Shown here piece by piece: positions 3,711 through 32,620 of a stretch of DNA of 64,000 nt (its first letter is position 1; the number at the start of each line of letters is the position of its first letter). The position numbers and the translations under genes are program-made. A model generated the notes under the pieces. The model worked only from the letters and a program-made list of their open reading frames with translations, had not been told where the DNA came from and made no database searches. The DNA is from Phycisphaeraceae bacterium (lineage in GTDB: Bacteria; Planctomycetota; Phycisphaerae; Phycisphaerales; Phycisphaeraceae): contig JANQKT010000029.1 in assembly GCA_028280965.1 (NCBI GenBank), forward strand, positions 260 to 64,259, read 5' to 3'.

Positions 3711-5705
3711 ATGACCACTAAACGTGTTGAACTGACCTGGCACAAGGCGCTCGATCAGGACGAGCTTCCCGAGGGGCGTGTCAAGACGGTCACGCTGGGC
3801 ACGCAGTCGCTGTGCATGACCCACCACGGCGGGCAGTACGCGGCGCTGTGCAACGCCTGCCCGCACCAGGGCGGCCCGCTGGGCGAGGGCTCGATCGAGA
3901 ACGGGATGCTGCGCTGCCCCTGGCACGGCTGGGACTTCGACCCGACGACCGGCAAGCCGCCGGGCGGCTACGACGACGGTGTGCCGACCTACCCGGTTGA
4001 GGTGCGCGGAGACGGCGTTTACGTCGGCATCGAAGAAGACAAAACGCACACTCAGGATGTGTCGGATGTCATGGTGCAGACGATGGTCAGCTGGGGCGTG
4101 CGGTGGTGCTTCGGGATGGTGGGGCACTCGAACCTGTACGTCGCCGACGCGCTGCGCCGGGCAGGATCGAATGGCCGGCTGAGTTACATCGGCATCCGCC
4201 ACGAGGGTGCCGCCTCGTTCGCCGCCAGTGCGTATGGCAAGCTGACGGGCCGCCCGGCGTCTTGCCTGGCGATCGCCGGGCCGGGCGCGACGAACCTGCT
4301 GACCGGCTTGTGGGATGCGCACGTGGATCGCGCGCCGCTGCTCGCGCTGACCGGGCAGGTCTCGACGCAGGTGCTCGGCCGACACAACTTCCAGGAGCTG
4401 CCGCTGGACAAGGCGTTCGGCGGCGTCGCGGAGTACACGCAGACCGTGCTGCCCGGCTCGAACCACGCCGAGCTGATGGCCCTGGCGTGCAAGAGCGCGA
4501 TTACAACACGGTCGGTCTCGCATCTGGTTTTCCCGGATGAGGTGGCCGGGCTTGAGCAGCCGGACGCGAAGCCGACGATACCGGAAGGGCGCCTGCCCGA
4601 CCGCGCAGTCGCGCCGCCTAAGGATGCGATCAGTCACGCATGCTCAATGCTCAAGCGCGCGAAGCGACCAGTCATCATCGTCGGGCACGGGGCGCGCTAC
4701 AACATGGACGCGATTACCGCGCTCGCTGAAGTGCTCAAGTGCCCGGTGCTGACGACGTTCAAGGGCAAGGGCCTGATCGCGGACCACGGCGCGGTTGAAG
4801 ACGGGCGGCACCCGCTCGGTGGCGGGGTGCTGGGCCGTTCGGGCACGCCCATCGCTTCGTGGTTTATGAACGAGAGCGACCTGTTGCTGGTACTGGGCGC
4901 AAGTTTCTCGAACCACACCGGCATCACGCCGAAGAAGCCGACGATCCAGATCGACGACGACCCGATGATGCTGGCCAAGTTCCATTCGGTGGACTGCCCG
5001 GTGCTCGGCTCGCTCGAGGCGACGCTGCCGATGCTGATCGACGCGGTCAAGCCCGGCCACGCGAGCGGCGACCACACCGCCGAGGTCGCCGAGCGCTGGC
5101 GGATCTGGCGGGAAGAGAAGGCGAGCCGCCTCGCCGATGATCGCGGCATGGGTGTCAGCTCGATCGCGGTGTTCGATGCGCTCACGCGCCTGGCACCTCA
5201 GGACGCGATCATGCCCGTCGATGTCGGCAACAACACCTACAGCTTCGGCCGGTACTTCGAGTGCTCACGCCAGGCCGTGCTGATGTCCGGCTACCTCGGT
5301 TCGATCGGCTTCGGCCTGCCCGCGGCGCTGGGCGCCTGGGCCGCGACGCAGGAGCAGGGCTCGCCCTACGCCGGCCGGAAGGTCATCAGCATCTCCGGCG
5401 ACGGCGGCTTCGGCCAGTATGCCATGGAGTTCACCACCGCGGTCAGGTATGGCATGGATCTCACGCACGTGCTTTTGAACAACAGCAACCTCGGCAAGAT
5501 CACCAAGGAGCAGCGCGCCGGCGAATGGCCGGTCTGGCAGACCGAACTGACCAACCCGGGCTTCGCCAGGTTCGCAGAGAGCTGCGGCGGCGTGGGGATC
5601 AAAGTCGAGAAGGCGGATGAGCTAGGCGACGCGATCAAGGCGGCGCTCGCGGTTCGTGATGGCCCGTCGTTGATTGAGGTGGTGGCGGATCAGGAGCTGA
5701 TCTAG
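3711..5705 (+). CDS. Thiamine-pyrophosphate enzyme (pyruvate oxidase-like) with N-terminal Rieske [2Fe-2S] domain
   Basis: Rieske CPH...CPWH; RHEGAASFAA; GPGATN; GDGGF...NN TPP motif. Confidence 0.88.
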   Translation: MTTKRVELTWHKALDQDELPEGRVKTVTLGTQSLCMTHHGGQYAALCNACPHQGGPLGEGSIENGMLRCPWHGWDFDPTTGKPPGGYDDGVPTYPVEVRGDGVYVGIEEDKTHTQDVSDVMVQTMVSWGVRWCFGMVGHSNLYVADALRRAGSNGRLSYIGIRHEGAASFAASAYGKLTGRPASCLAIAGPGATNLLTGLWDAHVDRAPLLALTGQVSTQVLGRHNFQELPLDKAFGGVAEYTQTVLPGSNHAELMALACKSAITTRSVSHLVFPDEVAGLEQPDAKPTIPEGRLPDRAVAPPKDAISHACSMLKRAKRPVIIVGHGARYNMDAITALAEVLKCPVLTTFKGKGLIADHGAVEDGRHPLGGGVLGRSGTPIASWFMNESDLLLVLGASFSNHTGITPKKPTIQIDDDPMMLAKFHSVDCPVLGSLEATLPMLIDAVKPGHASGDHTAEVAERWRIWREEKASRLADDRGMGVSSIAVFDALTRLAPQDAIMPVDVGNNTYSFGRYFECSRQAVLMSGYLGSIGFGLPAALGAWAATQEQGSPYAGRKVISISGDGGFGQYAMEFTTAVRYGMDLTHVLLNNSNLGKITKEQRAGEWPVWQTELTNPGFARFAESCGGVGIKVEKADELGDAIKAALAVRDGPSLIEVVADQELI

Positions 5706-5788
5706 GATTACTGTATTAGTGTTCTTGAATCGATAAGGCGTGATCTTGTTCTGCATCCAACAGGAGTCAGATTGACGGGAATGATATA

Positions 5789-6325
5789 ATGGCAAACAAA
5801 CAAGGATTTGATAGTGAGGTAATCGTTCGCTGGGTCGTGCACGCCGGACCCGATCGTGAGATGCGATTAGAAAAGGGGCTGACCTATACTGATAGCGCTG
5901 GGAAGAAATGGCCTGCGGAACCGGGCGATTTGATCGATGGGGCGAGTATCCCAAGATTCTTGTGGAGTACATTCCCCGGCTCGCCGTTTATCGGGGATTA
6001 TCGCCGGGCTGCCGCGCTGCATGACTCCAACTACATCCATCGTTATGGTGGCGATCGTAAGGCGGTTGACCGTGTGTTTTATGAGGCGATGCGTTTTGAC
6101 GGCACGTCACGGTTTAAGTCGCTTGCGATGTACATCGCTGTTCGATTATTCGGCGGGCGGTACTGGCAAAAAAACGAATTCGTGGCGACGACACCAAGGA
6201 TGGAACAAGAATGCTGGGAACTGGTCGAATGGGCAAATGTGGCACCCGGCGAACCAGATTTGGATGCGATCGATAAGCGGTGTGACAAACTTCGAGCAGA
6301 CTTAAACTTGAACTTGGCTGAGTGA
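5789..6325 (+). CDS. DUF1353-like protein
   Basis: DGASIPRFLWS..GSPF.GDYRRAAALHD, ADRVF.EAM, MY.AVRLFG. Confidence 0.8.
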   Translation: MANKQGFDSEVIVRWVVHAGPDREMRLEKGLTYTDSAGKKWPAEPGDLIDGASIPRFLWSTFPGSPFIGDYRRAAALHDSNYIHRYGGDRKAVDRVFYEAMRFDGTSRFKSLAMYIAVRLFGGRYWQKNEFVATTPRMEQECWELVEWANVAPGEPDLDAIDKRCDKLRADLNLNLAE

Positions 6326-13174: not shown

Positions 13175-13879
13175 ATGAAACGCACATTTAACTACTATAG
13201 GTACTACGATGAACTCTTCGGCAGATTTCGCAACTATGATGATGACATCGCATTGGTGGAAACTCTCGCTGGCCCGATTAAAGAGCGAACGATCGTAGAG
13301 ATTGGAGCTGGCACGGGAAATCATGTGGCTGCATTGATCAAGAAAGGGGCGAATGTCCAAGCCCTTGATACGAATCCGATTGCGTGCCAGATTCTAAGGG
13401 AGCGTTTCTTGCCGGAGATGGATGTTGATGTTATCCAAGCGTGTGGGCTTAACGAGCCGCTGCAAGGAGACCTATTGTGTTGCTTCTTCCCAATCGCTCA
13501 GGAAGCACTTTGTGTTGATTCGCAAGCGCATAGGCTTGAGAGTTTATTCAACAAAGCAGATTCATTCCGCTCTGGAGTGATCTTTGAATGGATTGATATC
13601 GATAAGCATCTTGCAAAGTACGCGGGGCAATCGACCGACCTTGCCAATCCCTCAGAGAGTCTATGTATTAGCTTGACGAGTACTGAGGTCGATCAAGGCG
13701 CTTCTCTTTCCTACAGGGGGCACCTTGGTGGAGTGCCATTCGATTTCTCTGTAACCCTCCAAAGACTCTCGGAGTCAAACCTGCGAGAATTAGCGGGGAG
13801 ACTCGGGTTGCGGGCGAGTGCATTGCCAGTGTCAGCGTCCGGAAGAAAGAAGCTCTGGCACGTCTGCTTAACGCGCTAA
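13175..13879 (+). CDS. Class I SAM-dependent methyltransferase
   Basis: Motif I IVEIGAGTGNH, then ALD; 11 nt after the NTase stop. Confidence 0.8.
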   Translation: MKRTFNYYRYYDELFGRFRNYDDDIALVETLAGPIKERTIVEIGAGTGNHVAALIKKGANVQALDTNPIACQILRERFLPEMDVDVIQACGLNEPLQGDLLCCFFPIAQEALCVDSQAHRLESLFNKADSFRSGVIFEWIDIDKHLAKYAGQSTDLANPSESLCISLTSTEVDQGASLSYRGHLGGVPFDFSVTLQRLSESNLRELAGRLGLRASALPVSASGRKKLWHVCLTR

Positions 13880-14926
13880 ATGCTCAAGGCGACGGGAATA
13901 GGATTGCTCAAACCCCTGCATGTGCGACGCAAGTACATCGGGCGATTCAAGAGCCCGTCGAAAGAGATCAAGCAAATCATCGCACACTTGCTCTGTACTA
14001 CCCTTTTCTGACAAGGCCCATAGCATCGCAGTGTTTCCTCGAGGTGGGCGAGGGGTATCTGAGCGCGGAACAATGCAGTTCAGCAGTGATTGTAACGCCG
14101 TCTTCTCCAATTCCCCGCTATCCACAGCGTCAATCCAGTTTAGATTTGCAATGAGATCGCCGAACTGAAACGACAGGTCGTAAGTGTCACCAGATCCTGC
14201 CTTTATTCGAGTCCATGAGCGCCGAAGAGGCTCTGTGATTGATGACCCAGTATAGAGATGGCATTCTCCGATAGTGTTTTGTAGTCTAGATGTGAATATG
14301 TCCCACCCAGATAACCCGCGGTGGCCAAGTTCATGCTTGAGTAACATTTGCTCTGCCGCTACCAACCATTCTTGCAGCGATCGAGTATTCTCAGTTATCT
14401 GTTTATAAAGAAGTTCAAACACCTCAGCCACGTGGTCAGTGGCAATAGTTATCCTGCCAACTCGTTCATCTGGATAAACGAAGAACTGAAGTGGGTTTGC
14501 GGTAACCAGCGCGGGAGATTTCAGGTAGGAAACGGAAAGGCAGGGATGAATCTCAAAAGACTTCTCGTCAGAGATCCATCCAAATCCATTTGCAACCTGC
14601 CAGAATATGCCTTCTGTTTTGACCCTCGCTGGCGAGTCTAGAGCAATCCGTTGAAGTACTGCGAAGCATTCCTCGTAAGAATGGGGGGCTAACTTTAGGG
14701 CCAGACTCCACTGATCGTGCCGTATGTGGCTCTGCCATTCTTTTGGAGGCTGCTGACAGCGAGGGGGTCTTTCTTGCTCGGATAGTATAGTGCGGCGCCC
14801 TACCGTATGCCAACGGCTAAGTGGAACATCAGGGCTACGAGGAGCCGTGTTAGCCAAATAGCTCCAGTGATCTAATTTAATCAGAGTCTCATGCATTGCG
14901 GACTGATCTACCATTTTACGGGACAA
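13868..14926 (-). CDS. Hypothetical protein with HExxH zinc-peptidase-like motif
   Basis: LLKHELGHRG; start overlaps the upstream SIR2 gene by 19 nt. Confidence 0.6.
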   Translation of the reverse strand: MSRKMVDQSAMHETLIKLDHWSYLANTAPRSPDVPLSRWHTVGRRTILSEQERPPRCQQPPKEWQSHIRHDQWSLALKLAPHSYEECFAVLQRIALDSPARVKTEGIFWQVANGFGWISDEKSFEIHPCLSVSYLKSPALVTANPLQFFVYPDERVGRITIATDHVAEVFELLYKQITENTRSLQEWLVAAEQMLLKHELGHRGLSGWDIFTSRLQNTIGECHLYTGSSITEPLRRSWTRIKAGSGDTYDLSFQFGDLIANLNWIDAVDSGELEKTALQSLLNCIVPRSDTPRPPRGNTAMLWALSEKGSTEQVCDDLLDLFRRALESPDVLASHMQGFEQSYSRRLEHLAR

Positions 14927-17190
14927 ACTCGTGGGTCCTCACCTTCCGTTCCACGGCAGTAATAATCTTGAATCAACAATACACATCTGTCTGCGATATC
15001 TGTTATATCTGCTTCAGAAAGATTCTTTGGTAATCCACGTATCCATTCGTTAAGCTCTCCGACCCGCCGTCCAAAATCTGAATCCGAATAGAGATCAAGG
15101 ATTTCTTCGCGAAACCTGTCTGATATTGATTCAGCATGGCCGCCTGCCTGTGGTACAACGATCACTGGCTTCCCCGCGATTGCAGCAGCCCGAACCTCTT
15201 GCACGGTGCCTTCGAGATTTGAGGGACCCGTAGTTGGTTCATAGCCCTCGCCACCAATCGCAATCAATGCCGCGGTCATCTGCACAAACTCTCTCCAAAG
15301 GTCATCATGTTCCCGCGCCTTAATTCTGACGATGGGGGCATTCACATTGATATATCGCCCACCTCCGCCTTCGCGAAGAACAAATCGCCCGGACAGCGGA
15401 TCAATGCTATAGGCAGCCTCAACTGCCTCACGTCCTACAGTGGGTCCACAGCAAGACGAAACGCGGAAGCTTTGGCTTGCTAAGCGTTTTGCGAGGCCTT
15501 CGGCACATCTCACGGCGATGTCTTTAGCCACTGGAGAATGGCCGCCAAGCGCACGCTTCGCCCCGCGTCCGTCATCTTCAAAGCTGTTTCCGGCAAACCC
15601 CACTATAGGTCTTTGGACGCTCATAACCCCTCTCAAGAGTACGTGCATTAATTGAGAATACGACCGGACGTACTGGGTCATGATGCCGAGTTTCTTGAGT
15701 CTTTCTGCCTGAAGGCTTTGCAGATAGCGGCCAAGTGGATCAGGTTTATATACATCAAGGAACAAGTGTGGCTGATCGCTGCTTGGCTCAAGGGCTTCGC
15801 TTGCAATTAGAGTTCTAATAAATGGATCCCCGAACGAAAGTCCAAGAAAGAGAAATGGGCCAGCGCGATAATCTGCCTTCAATCGATCGAGGATCGCACC
15901 TCGGCGCATCGGGTAATTAGACATCTGTGGCTCAAAGACCGTTGGTGTCCCGGTAGCAAGATCGGCATCTACACCAGCAAGGAAATCTCCATGCAACTTG
16001 AATATGTCACCAGCAGTCCCAGCCGTCAGGGAAAGATCACTTGGCTGTCGTACGATACGGTACAGTTCTTGCGGACAAGTCTCGATAGCCTTCTCAAACA
16101 TGAAGTCATAGTTCGTCGTCCAGATCGAAAACGGCATCAGACGCAGAATTAGACTGTGATAAGCATTGGGGCGTTTTCCATCCCGAAATGAGCTAGAGAA
16201 GAAATTCCTTATCCCTTTGAGGTTCTCCTGATCCGTGGCACCAAGAGTCACAGCATCTAACACACCTAACTCACTAATGAAAGGTGACACCCCCGTCTCA
16301 TCTAGAATAGGGCGATACTGCTGAAGCCAGTCTCCATAACCCGAAGGAATCGAAACGCCAGCTCCACATAGTATTGAAAACCGGCGTTTCAACATCGGAT
16401 CAAGTGTTGTACGAAATAATGATTCGTCGCTACTAGGTAGATTCAGAGGTTGTACGCGTCGTTCTATTGCCTGCAGCGGCTTAAGAGAATCAATTGTGTA
16501 ATCTGCATTGCTCTGAGCAGATGGGGCTGGTTCCTTGGCATAGCTGGCGTGATAATAAGTCCACTGCCCAGATAAAGTTACTTCTTGCTTGACGGAACAA
16601 AAGGTCGCATAATCGACATCAGAATCCCCCACATATAGTAAATCGAACGTACCCGGGGACTTCGTTGAAAATCGAGCCAATGTCTCAATCAGTGTACGTG
16701 GATTGGGTTTCTTGATTCCTGATAGAGAATCATTGCCAACCACATGGTCGATTAGATGCCCTATCCGATGCCTGTCCAGGAACTCGCGGATTTCAGCCTC
16801 AGTCCTAAGCGACAGGATTGCGGTCTTATACCCGAGAGTTCTGGCGCATTCGATGAGCAGTTCGATACCGGTCTGTTTTGATGCGCGTTGGGTTAACCCC
16901 GTTGAGATTGAAGCTCTAAGAAACTGAAGTATCGTCTCCTGTGTTCCAGGCGTAAGCCCATTCTCAACCCAGAACCCCAAATCTTCTACGAGTCGCTCGG
17001 GCCCTCGTAGATTGAGGTATTGCCACGCAGCGGTAATTTTGGGTACCTCATCTGAAGCGGCCGCTTTTCTAATTAAGTCGAGAACCGCTTCTCTGGTATC
17101 AGAGATCGGGCCGTCAAAATCGAATACTGCTACTCGAAGCAAAGTTGCCCCTTTAGGCTCGGCATATTGCTCTATTGAGAAATATGCCAA
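14908..17190 (-). CDS. HAD phosphatase-SIR2-SLOG fusion (ThsA-like core with an added N-terminal HAD domain)
   Basis: HAD: FDFDGPISDT, KKPNP, YVGDSDVD. SIR2: LCGAGVS, WTTNYD, FKLHG, FLGLSFGDP. SLOG: VGFAGN, LIAIGG, GTVQEV..A...GKPVIVVPQAGG. TTG start. Confidence 0.8.
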   Translation of the reverse strand: MAYFSIEQYAEPKGATLLRVAVFDFDGPISDTREAVLDLIRKAAASDEVPKITAAWQYLNLRGPERLVEDLGFWVENGLTPGTQETILQFLRASISTGLTQRASKQTGIELLIECARTLGYKTAILSLRTEAEIREFLDRHRIGHLIDHVVGNDSLSGIKKPNPRTLIETLARFSTKSPGTFDLLYVGDSDVDYATFCSVKQEVTLSGQWTYYHASYAKEPAPSAQSNADYTIDSLKPLQAIERRVQPLNLPSSDESLFRTTLDPMLKRRFSILCGAGVSIPSGYGDWLQQYRPILDETGVSPFISELGVLDAVTLGATDQENLKGIRNFFSSSFRDGKRPNAYHSLILRLMPFSIWTTNYDFMFEKAIETCPQELYRIVRQPSDLSLTAGTAGDIFKLHGDFLAGVDADLATGTPTVFEPQMSNYPMRRGAILDRLKADYRAGPFLFLGLSFGDPFIRTLIASEALEPSSDQPHLFLDVYKPDPLGRYLQSLQAERLKKLGIMTQYVRSYSQLMHVLLRGVMSVQRPIVGFAGNSFEDDGRGAKRALGGHSPVAKDIAVRCAEGLAKRLASQSFRVSSCCGPTVGREAVEAAYSIDPLSGRFVLREGGGGRYINVNAPIVRIKAREHDDLWREFVQMTAALIAIGGEGYEPTTGPSNLEGTVQEVRAAAIAGKPVIVVPQAGGHAESISDRFREEILDLYSDSDFGRRVGELNEWIRGLPKNLSEADITDIADRCVLLIQDYYCRGTEGEDPRVCPVKW

Positions 17191-26501: not shown

Positions 26502-26574
<73 letters not shown>

Positions 26575-26603
26575 GTTGCGGACATAAGCCGCTGCGATCC
26601 ATG

Positions 26604-26632
26604 ATTTTACACCGACGAGGTTTCGTGGGCAA
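26604..26632 (-). promoter_or_regulatory. Promoter of the intact tRNA-Gly
   Basis: TTGCCC-N17-(TG)TAAAAT. Confidence 0.7.
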
Positions 26633-26773
26633 GCGCCTCCGAAATGGAGATGACAACCATGTTTCCAACCAAACGGGCGCCCGGGGGCGTTTCGGTGGCA
26701 CCCCGAGCGACGATCGCTTTTATGTGACCGGTAGGTGACCAATGGTGACTCATGCTCGTTGCATAGCGTCCTA

Positions 26774-27043: not shown

Positions 27044-27463
27044 ATGCTATTCGGGCCATGTCCTATTGAGTCACCGCCGGCAACATCATCAGGCGCATTC
27101 GATGGGCTGGCGGAGGGCGATCTCGTCGATATCTATTATGGAATCGCGCTGCATGTCAGCTACACCTCAGGCGATGGTAACGATGTCGGTGTTATGTCCG
27201 AGGTGCTACTCGAAGGCGACCTCAACGCATCTGGCGGTATCGACCAGGACGATCTCAATCTCGTTCTCGCCAATCTGTCAACAGAAGTCGAGAAAGGCAA
27301 CTGGAGATTAGGAGATGTCAACAACGACAGTTTTGTGAATCGCACAGATATCGATTCAGTCATTGCCAATTGGACCGGTACAGAAGATCCCGTTATTCCC
27401 GAACCTAGCACTTTGCTATGTCTTGGTATTGGCGGGCTGTTATCAGTTAGACGGCGCGGATAA
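27044..27463 (+). pseudogene. C-terminal remnant of a PEP-CTERM surface protein (dockerin/EF-hand-like repeats)
   Basis: GAFDGLAEG..V, SYTSGDGNDV, GDLNASGGIDQDDL, GDVNNDSFVNRTDI, IPEPSTLLCLGIGGLLSVRRR; no signal peptide or good start. Confidence 0.7.
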
Positions 27464-27688: not shown

Positions 27689-30600
27689 ATGGAACATAAC
27701 GTGACGAAATATGACGCGACATCGTATGACCCGGCATGGTCTACATCAATCAATTCACGAAATGCCGTGTTATGGCTTGGCAGCAACGCACCATCTCTCT
27801 TAGCCGACAACGAGGCATTGTCAGACCTACTCGAATTACCATGGCAGGCGATATTTGCTGTTAACCCATTAACACCTGTAATGGAAGCTCGAGCCGCACT
27901 ACGCGGCAAAGGTCGGGGGTCAAAACTCCGTATCATTACAGAAGACCCTGCATTTATCGAAATTGGGAATGAATCTGCTCCGGTCTACTGCTTACATGGA
28001 TTGGAGAGTGCGCCTGGCTCCGTTGGGTTAAGCGCACTTCAAAGCCAGCGTCGCTATTTGAATATGCTTACTAAGGTGCCTGCGCATCAATTTCTTTTTT
28101 GCATTGGATTAGATGGCGACAAAGACTTAAAAAAAGTTTCGGAAGGTATTGAATCATCCGCCTCGCCCGGCAAAGCAATCATCTCGTCGGAATTAAGGCC
28201 TCTACTCGATGACCGCGACCTACGAATCCCAGAAGTTATCCTTTGGAATCGAGATGAATCGGAGCTTATATCTAGCTTACGACAGCAAATAATTACAACA
28301 CAAACCGGGGATGCCTATCAGCTACGCTTATTTTCGGATTCTGGCTACATATCTGTCAATTTGTCTGACTGTGAACAACCAGGAAACTTAGTTCTAGACA
28401 AGTACTCACTCATAACAGAGTCAGACTTATCTGTGGCAGGGGAGCCGAGTTCGCAAGATCTGGAAGACTTCCTTACCGACCCCACCAACTCCTGGAAGCC
28501 GTACTCGCTGGGTATACCATGCAAACGGGGGCGAGAGTATGAAGATAACTTGCTCAAACTATTGAGAAAAGCTCTAGAAAAGGGGAAACAGGCTTCCGCA
28601 ACTGCATATATCGAAGTTGAAAGTGGATCTGGAAGTACAACTCTTATTAGGCAAATCAGCCACAGTGCCGCACTTGAAGGTTATCCGGTTCTTGTTGCTC
28701 ACCAGGACTTACGCAGCTTCGATACTCGCCAACTTGATTCGTTCATCAGACTAGCAGAGAAAAAAATAAAAGCGCAAGCCAACCGCATCCTACCCTGGCT
28801 AATAGTCTACGATTCGCCAAACCTCATGGGGGACTTTAGCACTATTTGCCAACTTGGGCGTAAACTCGCAAGGCCAGTAATCATTCTTGTTGCATTGCCG
28901 CACACACTTAATTCCTATAAATCCGATTTGTGGCAAGCAAGTCCTCTAGGACAAGAGTTGCGTAATCGAGTTACCTTGAGCGAAGCCGTAGATATAGGCG
29001 AGCATTTCTCGAAAATATTGCGCCCTGAGCAAAGAAGGAATAAAGAAGAGTGGGCACAGTTTATTGCTGAGGTTAGTAGAAATGGACCGCATGGCACTGA
29101 AAGCTTGTTTTGGATAGCGTTGCGCTTTTGGTTATTGCGGACAAAAGGTGCTAACGAGCCGCTTAAAAATTGGCTTGCCCGATTATTTGACGAAGCTGTT
29201 GGTGATAATCAATTGCTCCGAGCATCTTTACTTGAGATTGCTGCAGTATCCAACTACAGACTAGCGCTTCCACTTTGCTTAATATCTAGAGAGGCTCGCC
29301 CAGTTGTTTTAGATATGGCGAATAACAAATCTAACCCAATATCCTTGGAGAGATTTCGTGGTTCAAAATCTTATGAAATTGGATTCAGTCACCCGCTCAT
29401 CGGCGCCGAGTTAATTCGAATTGCGGAAAACAGTCACGAATCACTAGCGAGTATTGACAAAAATCATTCTTACTCAATTCACGACATAGAGCTTACGCTG
29501 TTCCAGAGACTACTGTCCCGAAAAGAAGCTGGAAAGAATGAATGCAGCGACTTCATTACAGAACTATCTTCTACCGCATTGCGAGTTGATCAGTTTGAAT
29601 TGCCCCGCAACTATGAAGAGAGAGATCGAATAGTTCAGATACTTGAGTCTGTACCCGACCCTGTCTTTGACTCAAATCCTATCTTCTTACATCGTCTTGC
29701 CATCGCAAGACGACACTTGGCTGCAAAACCTCCACATAGTGAACTGTGGTGGACAAAGCCAGAAAATGTTCGAGAACAATTCGAACTGGCCGAATCACAT
29801 ATTAAAGTTGCAATCAACATTACCACCTTAGCAGACGACCCAATCGAGCCACTCGACAATCTCTTTACGACATTGGGAAGAATATATGAGCAATGGTCAG
29901 AATTTGAGTCTTCAGTCGGCGACAAAGATCGTTCCTTAGCCTACGAAGAGGCTGCGGAAAGGGCATATTTATCAGCAGAGCAGTTCAATCCTGACAACAT
30001 AAAGCTTATAAATACACTAGCAAACCGATATCTCAAGCTAGCTCAAAAGAATCCCGGAACACCGGATTCTGTTCGAATGCTTGTTGACGCAATCTCACTA
30101 TATGGACGTGTTTTGGCAACAGAATCTCGCGACAATCGCGATGAAACACTCCAGCATTACGCCTTGGCTCTAAACTTGCTAAAGGATGGTTCAGGCAAAG
30201 CATTATTAGACGATATGATGGCCCGTGGTGAGGAATCTGCATTCATAGCTGCGGCCCAGATACGGTATGCAGAGTCAAACAATGACCCGAGTGAACTTCG
30301 AGGCGTTATTGCATTACTTCAAAAGATCGAAGGCGCATCGAAATCGTGGAGATCTTACGAACTACTGTACACGGTTCTGTCGACGCTCGAGCCATTTAAC
30401 TTTAATCGTCGCCTTGAACTTCTAGATTCGCTTTCTACCACAGAATTCGCATGGCCACTGCAAAAGCTCTTAGAGCGAACGATTCTGTCACATCAAACCG
30501 GTGATCACGCTACTGCAGAAAAACTATATCGTACCATTCGCAAGTCACTCCAGACACGCAATATTCGCTTGTCGATACCTGAAGAAATGAAATTCCTGAT

Positions 30601-30832
30601 GGACCCTGTTGCAAACTATCAAAATGCACTGCGAACAAATGCGACTATTGTTGAAACTTCTCGGGTTGGGGACAGGATGTGGGCAGTTCCTGAGGGCTGG
30701 CAAAATTACAAAGTGCAATTGCGACCCCACTTGTTCCCATATGATTCAATTAAGAGCGGCCAAGAAGTGCCGTGCTGTGTGCAGTTCACTTTCTACGGGC
30801 CCGAAGTCGTACCGGAGACGGAATTGCAATGA
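27689..30832 (+). CDS. Multidomain protein: degenerate SIR2-like, STAND-like P-loop, TPR/helical repeats, possible C-terminal OB-like domain
   Basis: VLWLG / W.AIFAVN / YCLHG / FLFCIG; ESGSGSTT (variant Walker A) and LIVYD (Walker B); TLGRIYEQW and other TPR-like helices; V.FTFYGP C-terminus. Confidence 0.62.
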   Translation: MEHNVTKYDATSYDPAWSTSINSRNAVLWLGSNAPSLLADNEALSDLLELPWQAIFAVNPLTPVMEARAALRGKGRGSKLRIITEDPAFIEIGNESAPVYCLHGLESAPGSVGLSALQSQRRYLNMLTKVPAHQFLFCIGLDGDKDLKKVSEGIESSASPGKAIISSELRPLLDDRDLRIPEVILWNRDESELISSLRQQIITTQTGDAYQLRLFSDSGYISVNLSDCEQPGNLVLDKYSLITESDLSVAGEPSSQDLEDFLTDPTNSWKPYSLGIPCKRGREYEDNLLKLLRKALEKGKQASATAYIEVESGSGSTTLIRQISHSAALEGYPVLVAHQDLRSFDTRQLDSFIRLAEKKIKAQANRILPWLIVYDSPNLMGDFSTICQLGRKLARPVIILVALPHTLNSYKSDLWQASPLGQELRNRVTLSEAVDIGEHFSKILRPEQRRNKEEWAQFIAEVSRNGPHGTESLFWIALRFWLLRTKGANEPLKNWLARLFDEAVGDNQLLRASLLEIAAVSNYRLALPLCLISREARPVVLDMANNKSNPISLERFRGSKSYEIGFSHPLIGAELIRIAENSHESLASIDKNHSYSIHDIELTLFQRLLSRKEAGKNECSDFITELSSTALRVDQFELPRNYEERDRIVQILESVPDPVFDSNPIFLHRLAIARRHLAAKPPHSELWWTKPENVREQFELAESHIKVAINITTLADDPIEPLDNLFTTLGRIYEQWSEFESSVGDKDRSLAYEEAAERAYLSAEQFNPDNIKLINTLANRYLKLAQKNPGTPDSVRMLVDAISLYGRVLATESRDNRDETLQHYALALNLLKDGSGKALLDDMMARGEESAFIAAAQIRYAESNNDPSELRGVIALLQKIEGASKSWRSYELLYTVLSTLEPFNFNRRLELLDSLSTTEFAWPLQKLLERTILSHQTGDHATAEKLYRTIRKSLQTRNIRLSIPEEMKFLMDPVANYQNALRTNATIVETSRVGDRMWAVPEGWQNYKVQLRPHLFPYDSIKSGQEVPCCVQFTFYGPEVVPETELQ

Positions 30833-31647
30833 CAGAATCAAGTGATACTGTATCTAAGAAACGCTCTAGCTTTCCCTCACCCAAAAGGATGGTGAGCCAG
30901 GAAGTTTTTACCCTAGTCGATGACATAATACGTCGAGACTATCTTCTAGATCCGCTAAAGCCATATACGATATTCACTGAAGGCAACAGCGATTGTGAAT
31001 TCATCAGGACAGCGTGCCTTGCTATTAAAGTTGAGTGGGGCATTGACTTGCTAACCATTGATATGGGTGGAACTAGTCATGCAATATACTTGCAAACACC
31101 TAAGAAGCCAGAGGCGCCAGATCGCGGCGGAGTACAGCAACTGGTTAGACTGGGAGAAGAATTAAGTGTCTGGAAAAACCGGATTGACTTCCCTCCAGTT
31201 GCGTTTCTATTCGATCATGACAAAGCGGGAAAAGATGGCAGAGAAAAACTCCGCGGATCATGGAAAGATAACGACACATGCATTTCCCTTGATCCTCGGC
31301 TGCATGATAGGTGCCAACTAGATCACAAAAATGATGAAGTCGATATGGAAAGTCTCATTGATATCGAATTTCAAGCATGCTTTTTCAATGACCTCAGATC
31401 ACCTACCGCGTGGGTTCATTTCAAATCGGGAGCTATTTCCCAAATCAAATGGGAACACCCCTCTAAAAGTGACTTCTGGGAATACGTGGGTAGAGAAGCT
31501 AGAGCGGTTCACCTGCTTGAACTTGGAAGAGTAGTCTCCCGAATCCGCGAAGCGTGGGGAGTGCCAATACCATATCCTCCTTCTCTCCCGCAGTCCGACG
31601 AATGTGTGCCTACAGAACAACCAAATGACAGCCATAATGAGTCTTAA
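30829..31647 (+). CDS. Stand-alone TOPRIM (OLD-like) nuclease domain protein
   Basis: IFTEGNSD, FLFDHDKAG (DxD), DMESL; ATGA overlap with the upstream gene. Confidence 0.68.
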   Translation: MTESSDTVSKKRSSFPSPKRMVSQEVFTLVDDIIRRDYLLDPLKPYTIFTEGNSDCEFIRTACLAIKVEWGIDLLTIDMGGTSHAIYLQTPKKPEAPDRGGVQQLVRLGEELSVWKNRIDFPPVAFLFDHDKAGKDGREKLRGSWKDNDTCISLDPRLHDRCQLDHKNDEVDMESLIDIEFQACFFNDLRSPTAWVHFKSGAISQIKWEHPSKSDFWEYVGREARAVHLLELGRVVSRIREAWGVPIPYPPSLPQSDECVPTEQPNDSHNES

Positions 31648-31776
31648 TAGCTGATCATTAGGTGACCAATGGCTGGCCGACATGTAACCAAAACAGCTTT
31701 GCAAGCACATGCAAATGAAGGGCTTATTGTTTTAACTATATCTATATCAAGAGTTTTCGCAGCTGCGTATTAGCCG

Positions 31777-31814
<38 letters not shown>

Positions 31815-31843
31815 GTGAACGGCCTAAGCCGCTGCGACGCATG

Positions 31844-31872
31844 ATCTTACACGGGGCGGATTCCGTGGGCAA
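31844..31872 (-). promoter_or_regulatory. tRNA-Gly-type promoter, copy 3 (points into cassette B)
   Basis: TTGCCC-N17-(TG)TAAGAT. Confidence 0.65.
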
Positions 31873-31974
31873 GCGGCCACGGAACGGCGACGACAACCAC
31901 GTTTCTTTGAAGACCTTTGCGATCATCAAGGCGCAGGGGGAGTACTGATGGCAACAGCTTTGGAACTTGGGGAT

Positions 31975-32159
31975 AGCCCGTCCTTTTGCCAGTCATTAAG
32001 TCCCTGGGTCTTCGCCTCGAACCAAGCGTCGATCTGCTCCTCTGATCCAAGCGCCTGCTCGATGTCTCGGGCCTCGTAGATCAGGTCCAGCACGACCTTG
32101 TCCTCGACAGCTTCGCCGAACTTGTAGGTGTGGATGTAATCGCCGAAGACCTCGTAGCT
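31975..32159 (-). pseudogene. hsdR: Type I restriction subunit HsdR relic, right piece
   Basis: SYEVFGDYIHTYKFGEAVEDKVVLDLIYEARDIEQ...IDAWFEAKTQGLNDWQK. Confidence 0.75.
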
Positions 32160-32620
32160 AGCCCTAGCGACGTTCGATTGGTCGGCGAACTGGTTCTCAT
32201 GTTCGGCGAATGGGTTCAGCGGCACTACTTCAGTAACGGCGAAGTTAGCCTGGAGTGCACTAATATCCAGCACGCCTTGCGTCCGCTCGTAACCCTCTAC
32301 GGAAATCAGCCCGTTGGAGACCTCAACTTCAGCGTCTTCGAACGAGTGCGAGAGGCGATGGTGCGCTCGGACTTGTCCTAGAAAGTTGTCAACGCCCGGA
32401 TGCGACGCATCCGGATGGTGATGAGATGGGCGGCAGATCGTGAAATCATGCCGCCGGAAGTAGTTTCTGCCGGCGATGGGGTGCAAGCCCTCCGACCCGG
32501 TCGCCTTGGATTAAAGGAGGGGAAAGGTATGCAGCCGGTTGCCGAGCGAGAAGCCGTGACCGCATTGAAGCAACTGCCCCAACAGTGCGGGCGATGGTAA
32601 GACTTCACTGGTATACAGGC
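32160..32620 (+). pseudogene. Tyrosine integrase relic, core-binding region to the start of the catalytic domain
   Basis: NIQHALRPLVTLYG, in-frame TAG at 32379, VVNARMRRIRMVMRWA, frameshift, AMVRLHWYTG, then truncated before the catalytic Arg. Confidence 0.78.

Follow-up and report, generated by a model that had tools for sequence, protein, structure and literature searches.

In a 64,000-nucleotide (nt) stretch of a Phycisphaeraceae bacterium genome (contig JANQKT010000029.1, positions 260 to 64,259; hereafter the window), two adjacent genes encode a large STAND-type protein and a small TOPRIM protein, which we call gene A and gene B. Gene A (27689-30832, 1047 amino acids (aa); like its parts, gene B, the direct repeats, the partial tRNA duplicate and the 139-aa ORF described below, on the + strand) carries an iSirtuin region, an nSTAND7 NTPase (NOD) module, tetratricopeptide repeats (TPR) and a C-terminal beta domain, and was assigned as a SAMD9-like STAND sensor from its open reading frame (ORF), Pfam matches, an AlphaFold2 (AF2) model and Foldseek. 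Gene B (30829-31647, 272 aa), the presumed effector, was assigned from its AF2 model, Foldseek and a family profile as a stand-alone TOPRIM nuclease of the OLD / retron-Eco2 type. The ATG of gene B at 30829 overlaps the TGA of gene A at 30830-30832, and this ATGA overlap (30829-30832) points to translational coupling of the two genes. The pair occurs only once in the 4.16-Mb assembly and lies in a 4.9-kb cassette, whose GC content is 46% against ~64% in the genome; the pair itself has a GC content of 0.456, compared with 0.641 for the window with its two low-GC stretches excluded. A preliminary description of the locus had proposed a two-gene defence system composed of a degenerate SIR2-STAND-TPR sensor and a stand-alone TOPRIM nuclease, and the ORF list and the sequence bear out both reading frames, their overlap and their AT-rich composition.

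Residues 292-678 of gene A (28562-29722) match the Pfam family nSTAND_NTPase7 (PF24404; 288 bits where the cut-off is 27, E 1.6e-85) along the whole model (positions 1-399 of 399), and residues 20-133 match iSirtuin, 'Inactive Sirtuin' (PF24403), with 29 bits against a cut-off of 27. Since a distant homologue (P0006) matches the two models very strongly, at 508 and 195 bits, the weak iSirtuin match of the window copy reflects divergence and not chance. We built the AF2 model of gene A on an alignment of 14 sequences, and its mean predicted local distance difference test (pLDDT) score is 82.7. The model begins with an inactive sirtuin-like (Rossmann) head at residues ~5-215 (27701-28333), in which strands and helices alternate and which includes the iSirtuin match. 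A small beta element follows, leading to an alpha/beta NTPase with helical and hairpin subdomains at about residues 280-680, where the invariant His568 is located beside the predicted beta hairpin and helix of the NOD module. Behind the NTPase, residues ~686-957 (29744-30559) are all-helical in the model and form TPR-like repeats, the presumed trigger-binding sensor; TPR structures were numerous among the Foldseek matches, and a profile of the 14-member family finds designed TPR proteins at positions 741-839 (E 2e-5), in agreement with the TPR-like helices that had been read from the sequence. The protein ends in a small beta domain at residues ~960-1047 (30566-30829), which takes the place of the OB domain of SAMD9, has six short strands with a pLDDT of 50-65, and conserves F1016, C1029, F1033, G1037 and P1038. 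An OB-like end had been suspected earlier; the small domain is indeed present, while its OB-like identity is suggested by the end-to-end alignment with SAMD9 and by nothing else. We found no AlbA_2 match in gene A with Pfam; the sirtuin-like head is the first domain, and such a nuclease would find no space in the model.

The nucleotide-binding motifs of gene A are unusual and conserved. The Walker A motif, E311-SGSGSTT-318 (28619-28642), has Ser316 at the position normally taken by lysine, as the alignment and a motif check show, and a canonical GxxxxGK[S/T] is found nowhere in the protein; the GSGST that had been noted previously corresponds to residues 313-317. In all 14 aligned nSTAND7 proteins the motif reads S-G-[S/A]-G-x-T-T, and the lysine position is occupied by S, A, G, T or I, with two members having exactly GGT. 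Thr317, Thr318 and Asp375 are conserved. Asp375, which is invariant in the alignments, closes the Walker B strand P369-WLIVYD-375 (28793-28813). In the model, a Walker B aspartate after a hydrophobic strand and a nucleotide-binding, helical and hairpin module followed by a solenoid are all present, as expected of a STAND protein. In the head, L28, W52 and R81 are the only near-invariant residues, and the LHG at residue 102 is not kept in the relatives. A motif check of this N-terminal domain agrees with the earlier observation that GAGxS and TTNYD are lacking. We considered an active SIR2 NADase for the head and rejected it, as GAGxS, TTNYD and the catalytic His/Asn are not conserved.

When the gene A model was compared with the Protein Data Bank (PDB) by Foldseek, the best match was human SAMD9 (9zjs_A; E 4.8e-16, TMq 0.52, TMt 0.49), which aligns over the whole length of roughly 1000 residues, and the second was EfAvs5 (9jap_A; E 5.7e-13). 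The remaining matches were generic TPR proteins at ~1e-4 or worse, and the plant NLR RPP1 was among the matches. SAMD9 is a series of SIR2-like, small 'Delta', NOD, TPR1, TPR2 and OB domains, and its SIR2-like domain, which has no NAD lid, is an assembly surface whose SIR2/SIR2 contacts, together with OB/SIR2 contacts, are needed for activation (PMC13600222). The Walker A lysine of SAMD9 is also replaced (742-GGT-744), and ATP is bound all the same (PMC13600222). In both SAMD9 and the gene A family, the sirtuin-like head is non-catalytic, and the GGT of the former corresponds to G-[S/A/G/T/I]-T in the latter. Judged from its model, gene A is a structural counterpart of the SAMD9 / Avs5 / Avs9 core, a relationship that the preliminary description had overlooked. 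The lysine-less Walker A and the dead sirtuin motifs are common to the 14 family members and shared with SAMD9; they are therefore conserved traits and not signs of decay, and the label 'degenerate' is misleading for features that belong to the whole family. PADLOC at E <= 1 and NCBIfam returned nothing for gene A.

When we searched 1.84 billion representative proteins exhaustively with HMMER, gene B had 47 relatives (about 47 clusters at 50% identity). Those of full length, at about 230-275 aa, stand alone, and the shorter matches are fragments. In the family alignment of 39 sequences, ten residues are invariant (E51, G52, D55, G101, D129, D131, G134, E174, K213 and R240), and the catalytic codons are all intact in the window copy (E51 at 30979-30981, D55 at 30991-30993, D129 at 31213-31215, D131 at 31219-31221, E174 at 31348-31350 and K213 at 31465-31467). 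The EGxxD and DxD motifs that had been recognised before belong to this set and read EGNSD (residue 51) and DHD (residue 129). With the family profile, retron Ec67/Eco2 is matched in its C-terminal TOPRIM, at residues 370-469 (E 3.7e-4), and EGxxD and DxD line up with E374, D378, D460 and D462 of Eco2. In Eco2, the catalytic set consists of E374, D460 and D462 for metal A, D378, S513 and E515 for metal B, and K562, and this pattern of a lysine and a two-metal site is common to class 2 OLD proteins (PMC12405507). By sequence, the invariant residues of gene B appear to reproduce the metal A, metal B and lysine pattern of Eco2 and class 2 OLD.

The AF2 model of gene B shows a TOPRIM fold (pLDDT 89.6), for which Foldseek gave retron Eco2 as the best match (probability 1.0), followed by small TOPRIM proteins, the Thermus and Xanthomonas OLD nucleases, and RNase M5. 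The STAND and TOPRIM folds that had been proposed are thus upheld by Pfam, the AF2 models and Foldseek. When the 39 family members were scanned with PADLOC, 21 of them weakly matched RT-Toprim_I-C (best 3e-6), 17 weakly matched AbiLii and one weakly matched GajA; no match to AriB was found with PADLOC among these 39 proteins, nor any to DUF4435 with Pfam, and the matches to Pfam Toprim families were weak and consistent. The window copy itself received no name from Pfam, PADLOC, NCBIfam or PHROGs, and its single-sequence PDB search returned noise. Pfam, PADLOC and NCBIfam scans found no ATPase domain in it, as had been stated. For either protein of the pair, nothing was found in a viral structure library or in PHROGs, and a word-indexed protein search gave only gene B itself for gene B and very few relatives for gene A. 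A primase or topoisomerase role for gene B was considered and rejected, as gene B lacks the accessory domains and has an OLD-type site. We also observed that most gene B proteins open with a conserved Pro/Arg-rich stretch at residues 1-40, with a consensus of about R-x-x-A-P-x-P-R-P. This N-terminus precedes the first helix and lies outside the TOPRIM core. Confidence in its model is low, and it could serve as a peptide that docks onto the sensor.

Gene A and gene B are passed on together. Starting from gene A, we found a gene B homologue directly downstream on the same strand in 11 of 11 distinct loci, including the window, whose hosts are Phycisphaerae, Pirellula, Myxococcaceae, a deltaproteobacterial metagenome-assembled genome (MAG), Udaeobacter and metagenomes. 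Starting from five divergent gene B relatives, we found an nSTAND7 gene, or its C-terminal end at a contig edge, directly upstream in 5/5. The order A then B is therefore seen in 16/16 independent loci, taking the window and other genomes together, across several phyla, and gene B was never seen without gene A, which confirms the linkage on which the preliminary description depended. In the 11 loci where the distance was measured, gene B starts between -14 and +15 nt from the stop of gene A in every case. The pairwise identities of the two proteins also correlate closely (Mantel r 0.91, 12 loci), and none of 5000 permutations reached this value.

In addition to these loci, three distant nSTAND7 proteins (21-24% identity) with a lysine-less P-loop are followed by an AAA+ / PRTase-CE gene and not by a TOPRIM gene (L018/L019, 5001-10031; L020, 2891-7789; L021, 2753-7520; one of them in a Caldilineaceae MAG). 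The partner, about 580 aa long, combines a sigma-54-type AAA+ domain with an AAA lid and PRTase-CE, and it starts within about 10 nt of the sensor stop in two of the three loci, L021 being interrupted. The sister clade represents another two-gene system built around this sensor family. Sensor-effector immune modules typically show one type of sensor combined with different downstream enzymes, and the exchange of the partner supports an effector role for gene B. The sister-clade nSTAND7 proteins do not match the iSirtuin model of Pfam. In L021 the sensor gene itself appears interrupted, and a separate ORF at 5601-6062 corresponds to its C-terminal end.

From the domain content, the linkage and the exchange of the partner, we infer that the pair is one mobile two-component NLR-type immune module, most likely anti-phage, in which gene A would be the sensor and gene B a TOPRIM effector that cuts RNA; we put the probability of this reading at about 0.68. 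Gene A would sit in a closed state, probably with ATP bound despite its lysine-less P-loop, as in SAMD9, until a phage-derived trigger binds to its TPR and beta region. It would then open and oligomerise via its pseudo-sirtuin head, probably with head-to-head and tail-to-head contacts like those of SAMD9, and the opened protein would recruit or release the TOPRIM protein as an active nuclease, which is probably a dimer. Gene B, as a two-metal OLD-type TOPRIM, would cut host RNA, most likely tRNA, so that translation stops and the infection aborts. The proposed substrate is consistent with the reports that PARIS AriB and P2 OLD cut tRNA (bioRxiv 10.64898/2026.07.10.737580), that activated Eco2 does so as well (PMC12916289), and that SAMD9 acts through tRNA cleavage (PMC12680541). 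More tentatively, the pair may be a split counterpart of SAMD9, in which a lysine-less, ATP-binding STAND core assembles via its head and OB-like tail and switches on a separate TOPRIM tRNase; the nSTAND7/SAMD9 core would then be an adaptor for interchangeable effectors in trans, either TOPRIM or AAA-PRTase-CE.

Several points weigh against the immune-module reading. The model of gene A was built on an alignment of just 14 sequences and has a poorly modelled C-terminal domain, and the likeness to SAMD9 and Avs5 is structural only, as a search of PDB sequences with the family profile gave no SAMD9 or Avs5 chain at E <= 1. SAMD9 has a His in place of the lysine, for which gene A shows no clear equivalent, so that ATP binding is not assured. 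For gene B, the correspondence of E174 and K213 with Eco2 E515 and K562 comes from spacing and invariance, since the profile alignment ends at Eco2 residue 469. No family member is found in PADLOC 2.0, PHROGs or NCBIfam, and the family is rare, occurring mostly in uncultured planctomycetes, myxobacteria and verrucomicrobia, with weak defence-island statistics. Finally, Gabija GajA and class 1/2 OLD proteins cut DNA in vitro too, so that the substrate of gene B may be DNA as well as RNA.

This last point leads to an alternative in which the immune module is the same and gene B is a DNA nuclease that nicks or degrades phage or host DNA, like GajA or classical OLD. Its active site is of the two-metal OLD type, the Thermus and Xanthomonas OLD nucleases among its structural matches have been characterised as DNases, and the weak GajA match of one family member points in the same direction. 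However, the nearest relatives by profile, fold and PADLOC are the TOPRIM of retron Eco2 / type I-C and AbiLii, evidence for tRNA or RNA cleavage in vivo exists for Eco2, PARIS AriB and P2 OLD, and the structural counterpart of the sensor, SAMD9, works via tRNA cleavage, so that we consider a DNase unlikely. A different activation route, with the same parts and the same role, is that the STAND protein sequesters a toxic TOPRIM and frees it upon a trigger without any activating oligomer, as in PARIS or toxin-antitoxin logic. PARIS AriA cages AriB and lets it go on triggering. Translational coupling of gene A and gene B would fix their stoichiometry, and gene B is never found without gene A. The isolated TOPRIM domain of Eco2 is a toxic RNase while the full assembly is not toxic (PMC12405507), and in PARIS the ABC ATPase (AriA) and the TOPRIM protein (AriB) are two different proteins (bioRxiv 10.64898/2026.07.10.737580). 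On the other side, SAMD9 and the STAND proteins of the Avs type become active when they open and oligomerise (PMC12803255, PMC13600222), and the dead sirtuin head, which is conserved here, is an assembly surface in SAMD9 (PMC13600222). We regard sequestration as possible, although on balance doubtful.

Two further explanations leave out immunity or function altogether. The pair might serve the mobile cassette, with the TOPRIM protein acting in replication, priming or strand transfer and the STAND protein as a regulator. TOPRIM domains also occur in primases and topoisomerases, which would be consistent with the weak Pfam Toprim matches; the cassette has unique direct repeats at its ends, a tRNA gene next to it and no integrase inside; and integrase or transposase genes flank some related loci. 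We find this very improbable, since the zinc-finger, helicase-binding and tyrosine elements known from primases and topoisomerases are all missing from gene B, which does have the second metal site and lysine of the OLD type, the flanks differ at every locus with only A and B conserved, and the repeat at the cassette ends is in none of 26 other loci. Furthermore, the best structural matches of gene A are immune sensors, and the sister clade replaces gene B with a PRTase-CE gene, an effector type tied to phage defence. The least probable explanation is that the two genes are decaying relics, for which the missing Walker A lysine and sirtuin motifs would be losses of function in a dead island. 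The region does have an odd composition and contains gene fragments, including an hsdR piece at 31926-32486. Both genes, however, are of full length compared with their relatives (1047 aa against 1046-1066 for gene A and 272 aa against 245-274 for gene B), the supposed defects are conserved across 14 sequences from several phyla, the catalytic residues of gene B and the coupling overlap are preserved in the window copy, and no gene-specific premature stops or frameshifts were seen in comparison with close homologues.

The proposed immune module shares parts with several known systems. Compared with SAMD9/SAMD9L and Avs9, whose order is AlbA_2, SIR2-like, STAND NTPase, TPR and OB, gene A has the same domain order from the SIR2-like head to the beta end, and, as SAMD9 acts via a tRNA nuclease, gene A may likewise be expected to act through a nuclease. 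In contrast to these proteins, gene A has neither a fused AlbA_2 (Schlafen-type) nuclease nor a SAM domain, and the nuclease here is of the TOPRIM fold and encoded by a separate gene. The bacterial SAMD9-like STAND proteins reported in the literature all have an effector fused at the N-terminus, which is an active SIR2 in Avs5, PNP in Avs6 and AlbA_2 in Avs9 (PMC12680541). Avs5 (AVAST type 5, SIR2-nSTAND3-TPR) is a known anti-phage system in the SAMD9-like structural cluster (PMC12803255, PMC12680541) and has the same layout of SIR2 fold, STAND and helical repeats as gene A. While the SIR2 of Avs5 is an active NADase effector, the head of gene A has no such motifs and a separate TOPRIM gene is present instead; the NTPase is nSTAND3 in Avs5 and nSTAND7 in gene A, which matched no PADLOC Avs model.

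For gene B, the nearest system by profile, fold and PADLOC model is retron Eco2 (Ec67; type I-C RT-TOPRIM), which has the same E, D, DxD, E, K pattern and whose TOPRIM is kept inactive by a sensor scaffold and, upon release, cleaves tRNA (PMC12916289). Unlike in Eco2, neither protein of the pair has a reverse transcriptase domain by Pfam (msr/msd RNA was not searched for), the TOPRIM is free-standing, and the partner is a STAND NTPase and not an RT-msDNA cage. PARIS and AbiL resemble the pair in that their OLD-type TOPRIM is separate from the ATPase partner. The TOPRIM effectors of OLD, Gabija, PARIS, AbiL and MADS are driven by ABC ATPases, whereas the partner here is a SAMD9-like STAND NTPase in 16/16 loci, and ORF and domain scans found no ABC ATPase in the cassette. 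The sister nSTAND7 systems have the same NTPase family, a lysine-less P-loop, a similar gene length and the two-gene layout, and differ in that their partner is AAA+ / PRTase-CE instead of TOPRIM.

PADLOC 2.0 assigns neither window protein to a system, in line with the earlier remark that the pairing was not one to be recognised; the domain families, on the other hand, are already curated in Pfam, so that the novelty lies in the combination. A paper by Nicastro et al. 2023 (NAR) reportedly defined PRTase-CE and is said to be a possible source of the Pfam nSTAND7 and iSirtuin entries, and a prior mention of the pair there is possible; a description of the pair was not found in the papers searched. 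Two eLife papers from the Aravind group define nSTAND1-3 only and not nSTAND7, a survey of 198 defence-associated STAND clades leaves TOPRIM unmentioned in its main text (PMC12803255), and reviews of OLD-type TOPRIM proteins give only ABC ATPases or retrons as partners (bioRxiv 10.64898/2026.07.10.737580). In the literature examined, this is the first TOPRIM effector tied to a STAND sensor, and we class the pair as a putative new form of SAMD9-like Avs immunity with a split effector. The joining of a SAMD9-type sensor to a separately encoded TOPRIM nuclease bridges two worlds of effectors and sensors, and current defence-finder models miss it. If the reading is true, STAND sensors can signal to effectors in trans, and more immune systems are likely to act on tRNA. 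The pair would also provide a small bacterial model, in which sensor and nuclease are separable by genetics, for how SAMD9-type sensors pass activation on, and SAMD9-type signalling with a lysine-less ATP site and a pseudo-sirtuin head would bear on human SAMD9/9L disease. Taken part by part, the observations of the preliminary description hold, and its interpretation of the components is supported.

The cassette that contains the pair is of foreign origin, and the proposed module is probably horizontally mobile. A repeat search showed that the cassette is bounded by 21-nt direct repeats at 26725-26745 on the left and 31652-31672 on the right, the latter 5 nt past the stop of gene B. Their 14-nt core, TAGGTGACCAATGG, is limited to the two cassette ends in the 4.16-Mb genome, with one copy at each, and the repeat was found in 0/26 other loci. 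At the left edge, ARAGORN identified a tRNA-Gly(CCC) on the - strand (26502-26574), and a partial duplicate of the tRNA-Gly 5' half and its upstream region is present at 31777-31905, 81% identical to 26537-26665. The direct repeats and the tRNA-Gly duplicate look like a scar of site-specific integration. The duplicated part of the tRNA is the 5' half and not the usual 3' half, and no integrase was found within the cassette. A 6-kb inversion had been proposed here earlier; the flanking repeats found are direct and not inverted.

The pair is present in 3/61 related genomes and in 0/14 genomes of the same genus, and PF24404 is found in one of 401 genomes sampled from the phylum, that of the window itself. 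In most loci the GC content of the pair is below that of its flanks. In the same-genus genomes, the flanks of the cassette are either too divergent or on contigs too short for an empty-site comparison. Elsewhere, the pair adjoins a tyrosine integrase (L027, 2422-3312) or an IS481-type transposase (L023, 5624-6502), which fits carriage by mobile elements.

The cassette also contains a 139-aa ORF upstream of gene A (27044-27463), with matches to Dockerin_1 and PEP-CTERM at E about 8e-5 each. The pair had been described as the only intact genes of the cassette; both are open, as stated, but this small ORF is open too. The gene calls available for related loci include no counterpart of it upstream of the pair. 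Directly after the cassette, on the - strand, lies a fragment of a type I restriction R-subunit gene (hsdR, 31926-32486), which matches PADLOC REase_I (2.5e-25) and Pfam SWI2_SNF2 at positions 161-220 only; further hsdR pieces were not detected in the ORFs at 24.5-27.5 kb or 32.4-33.6 kb. About 10 kb upstream of the pair, the - strand encodes a 760-aa ThsA-like protein composed of HAD phosphatase, SIR2_2 and STALD (SLOG) domains (14908-17190; PADLOC ThsA, E 1e-28), for which a TIR partner was not seen among the ORFs scanned. The ThsA-like gene sits in the second low-GC stretch of the window (12-18 kb), together with a methyltransferase-like gene (13175-13879) that has a weak match to MADS mad2.

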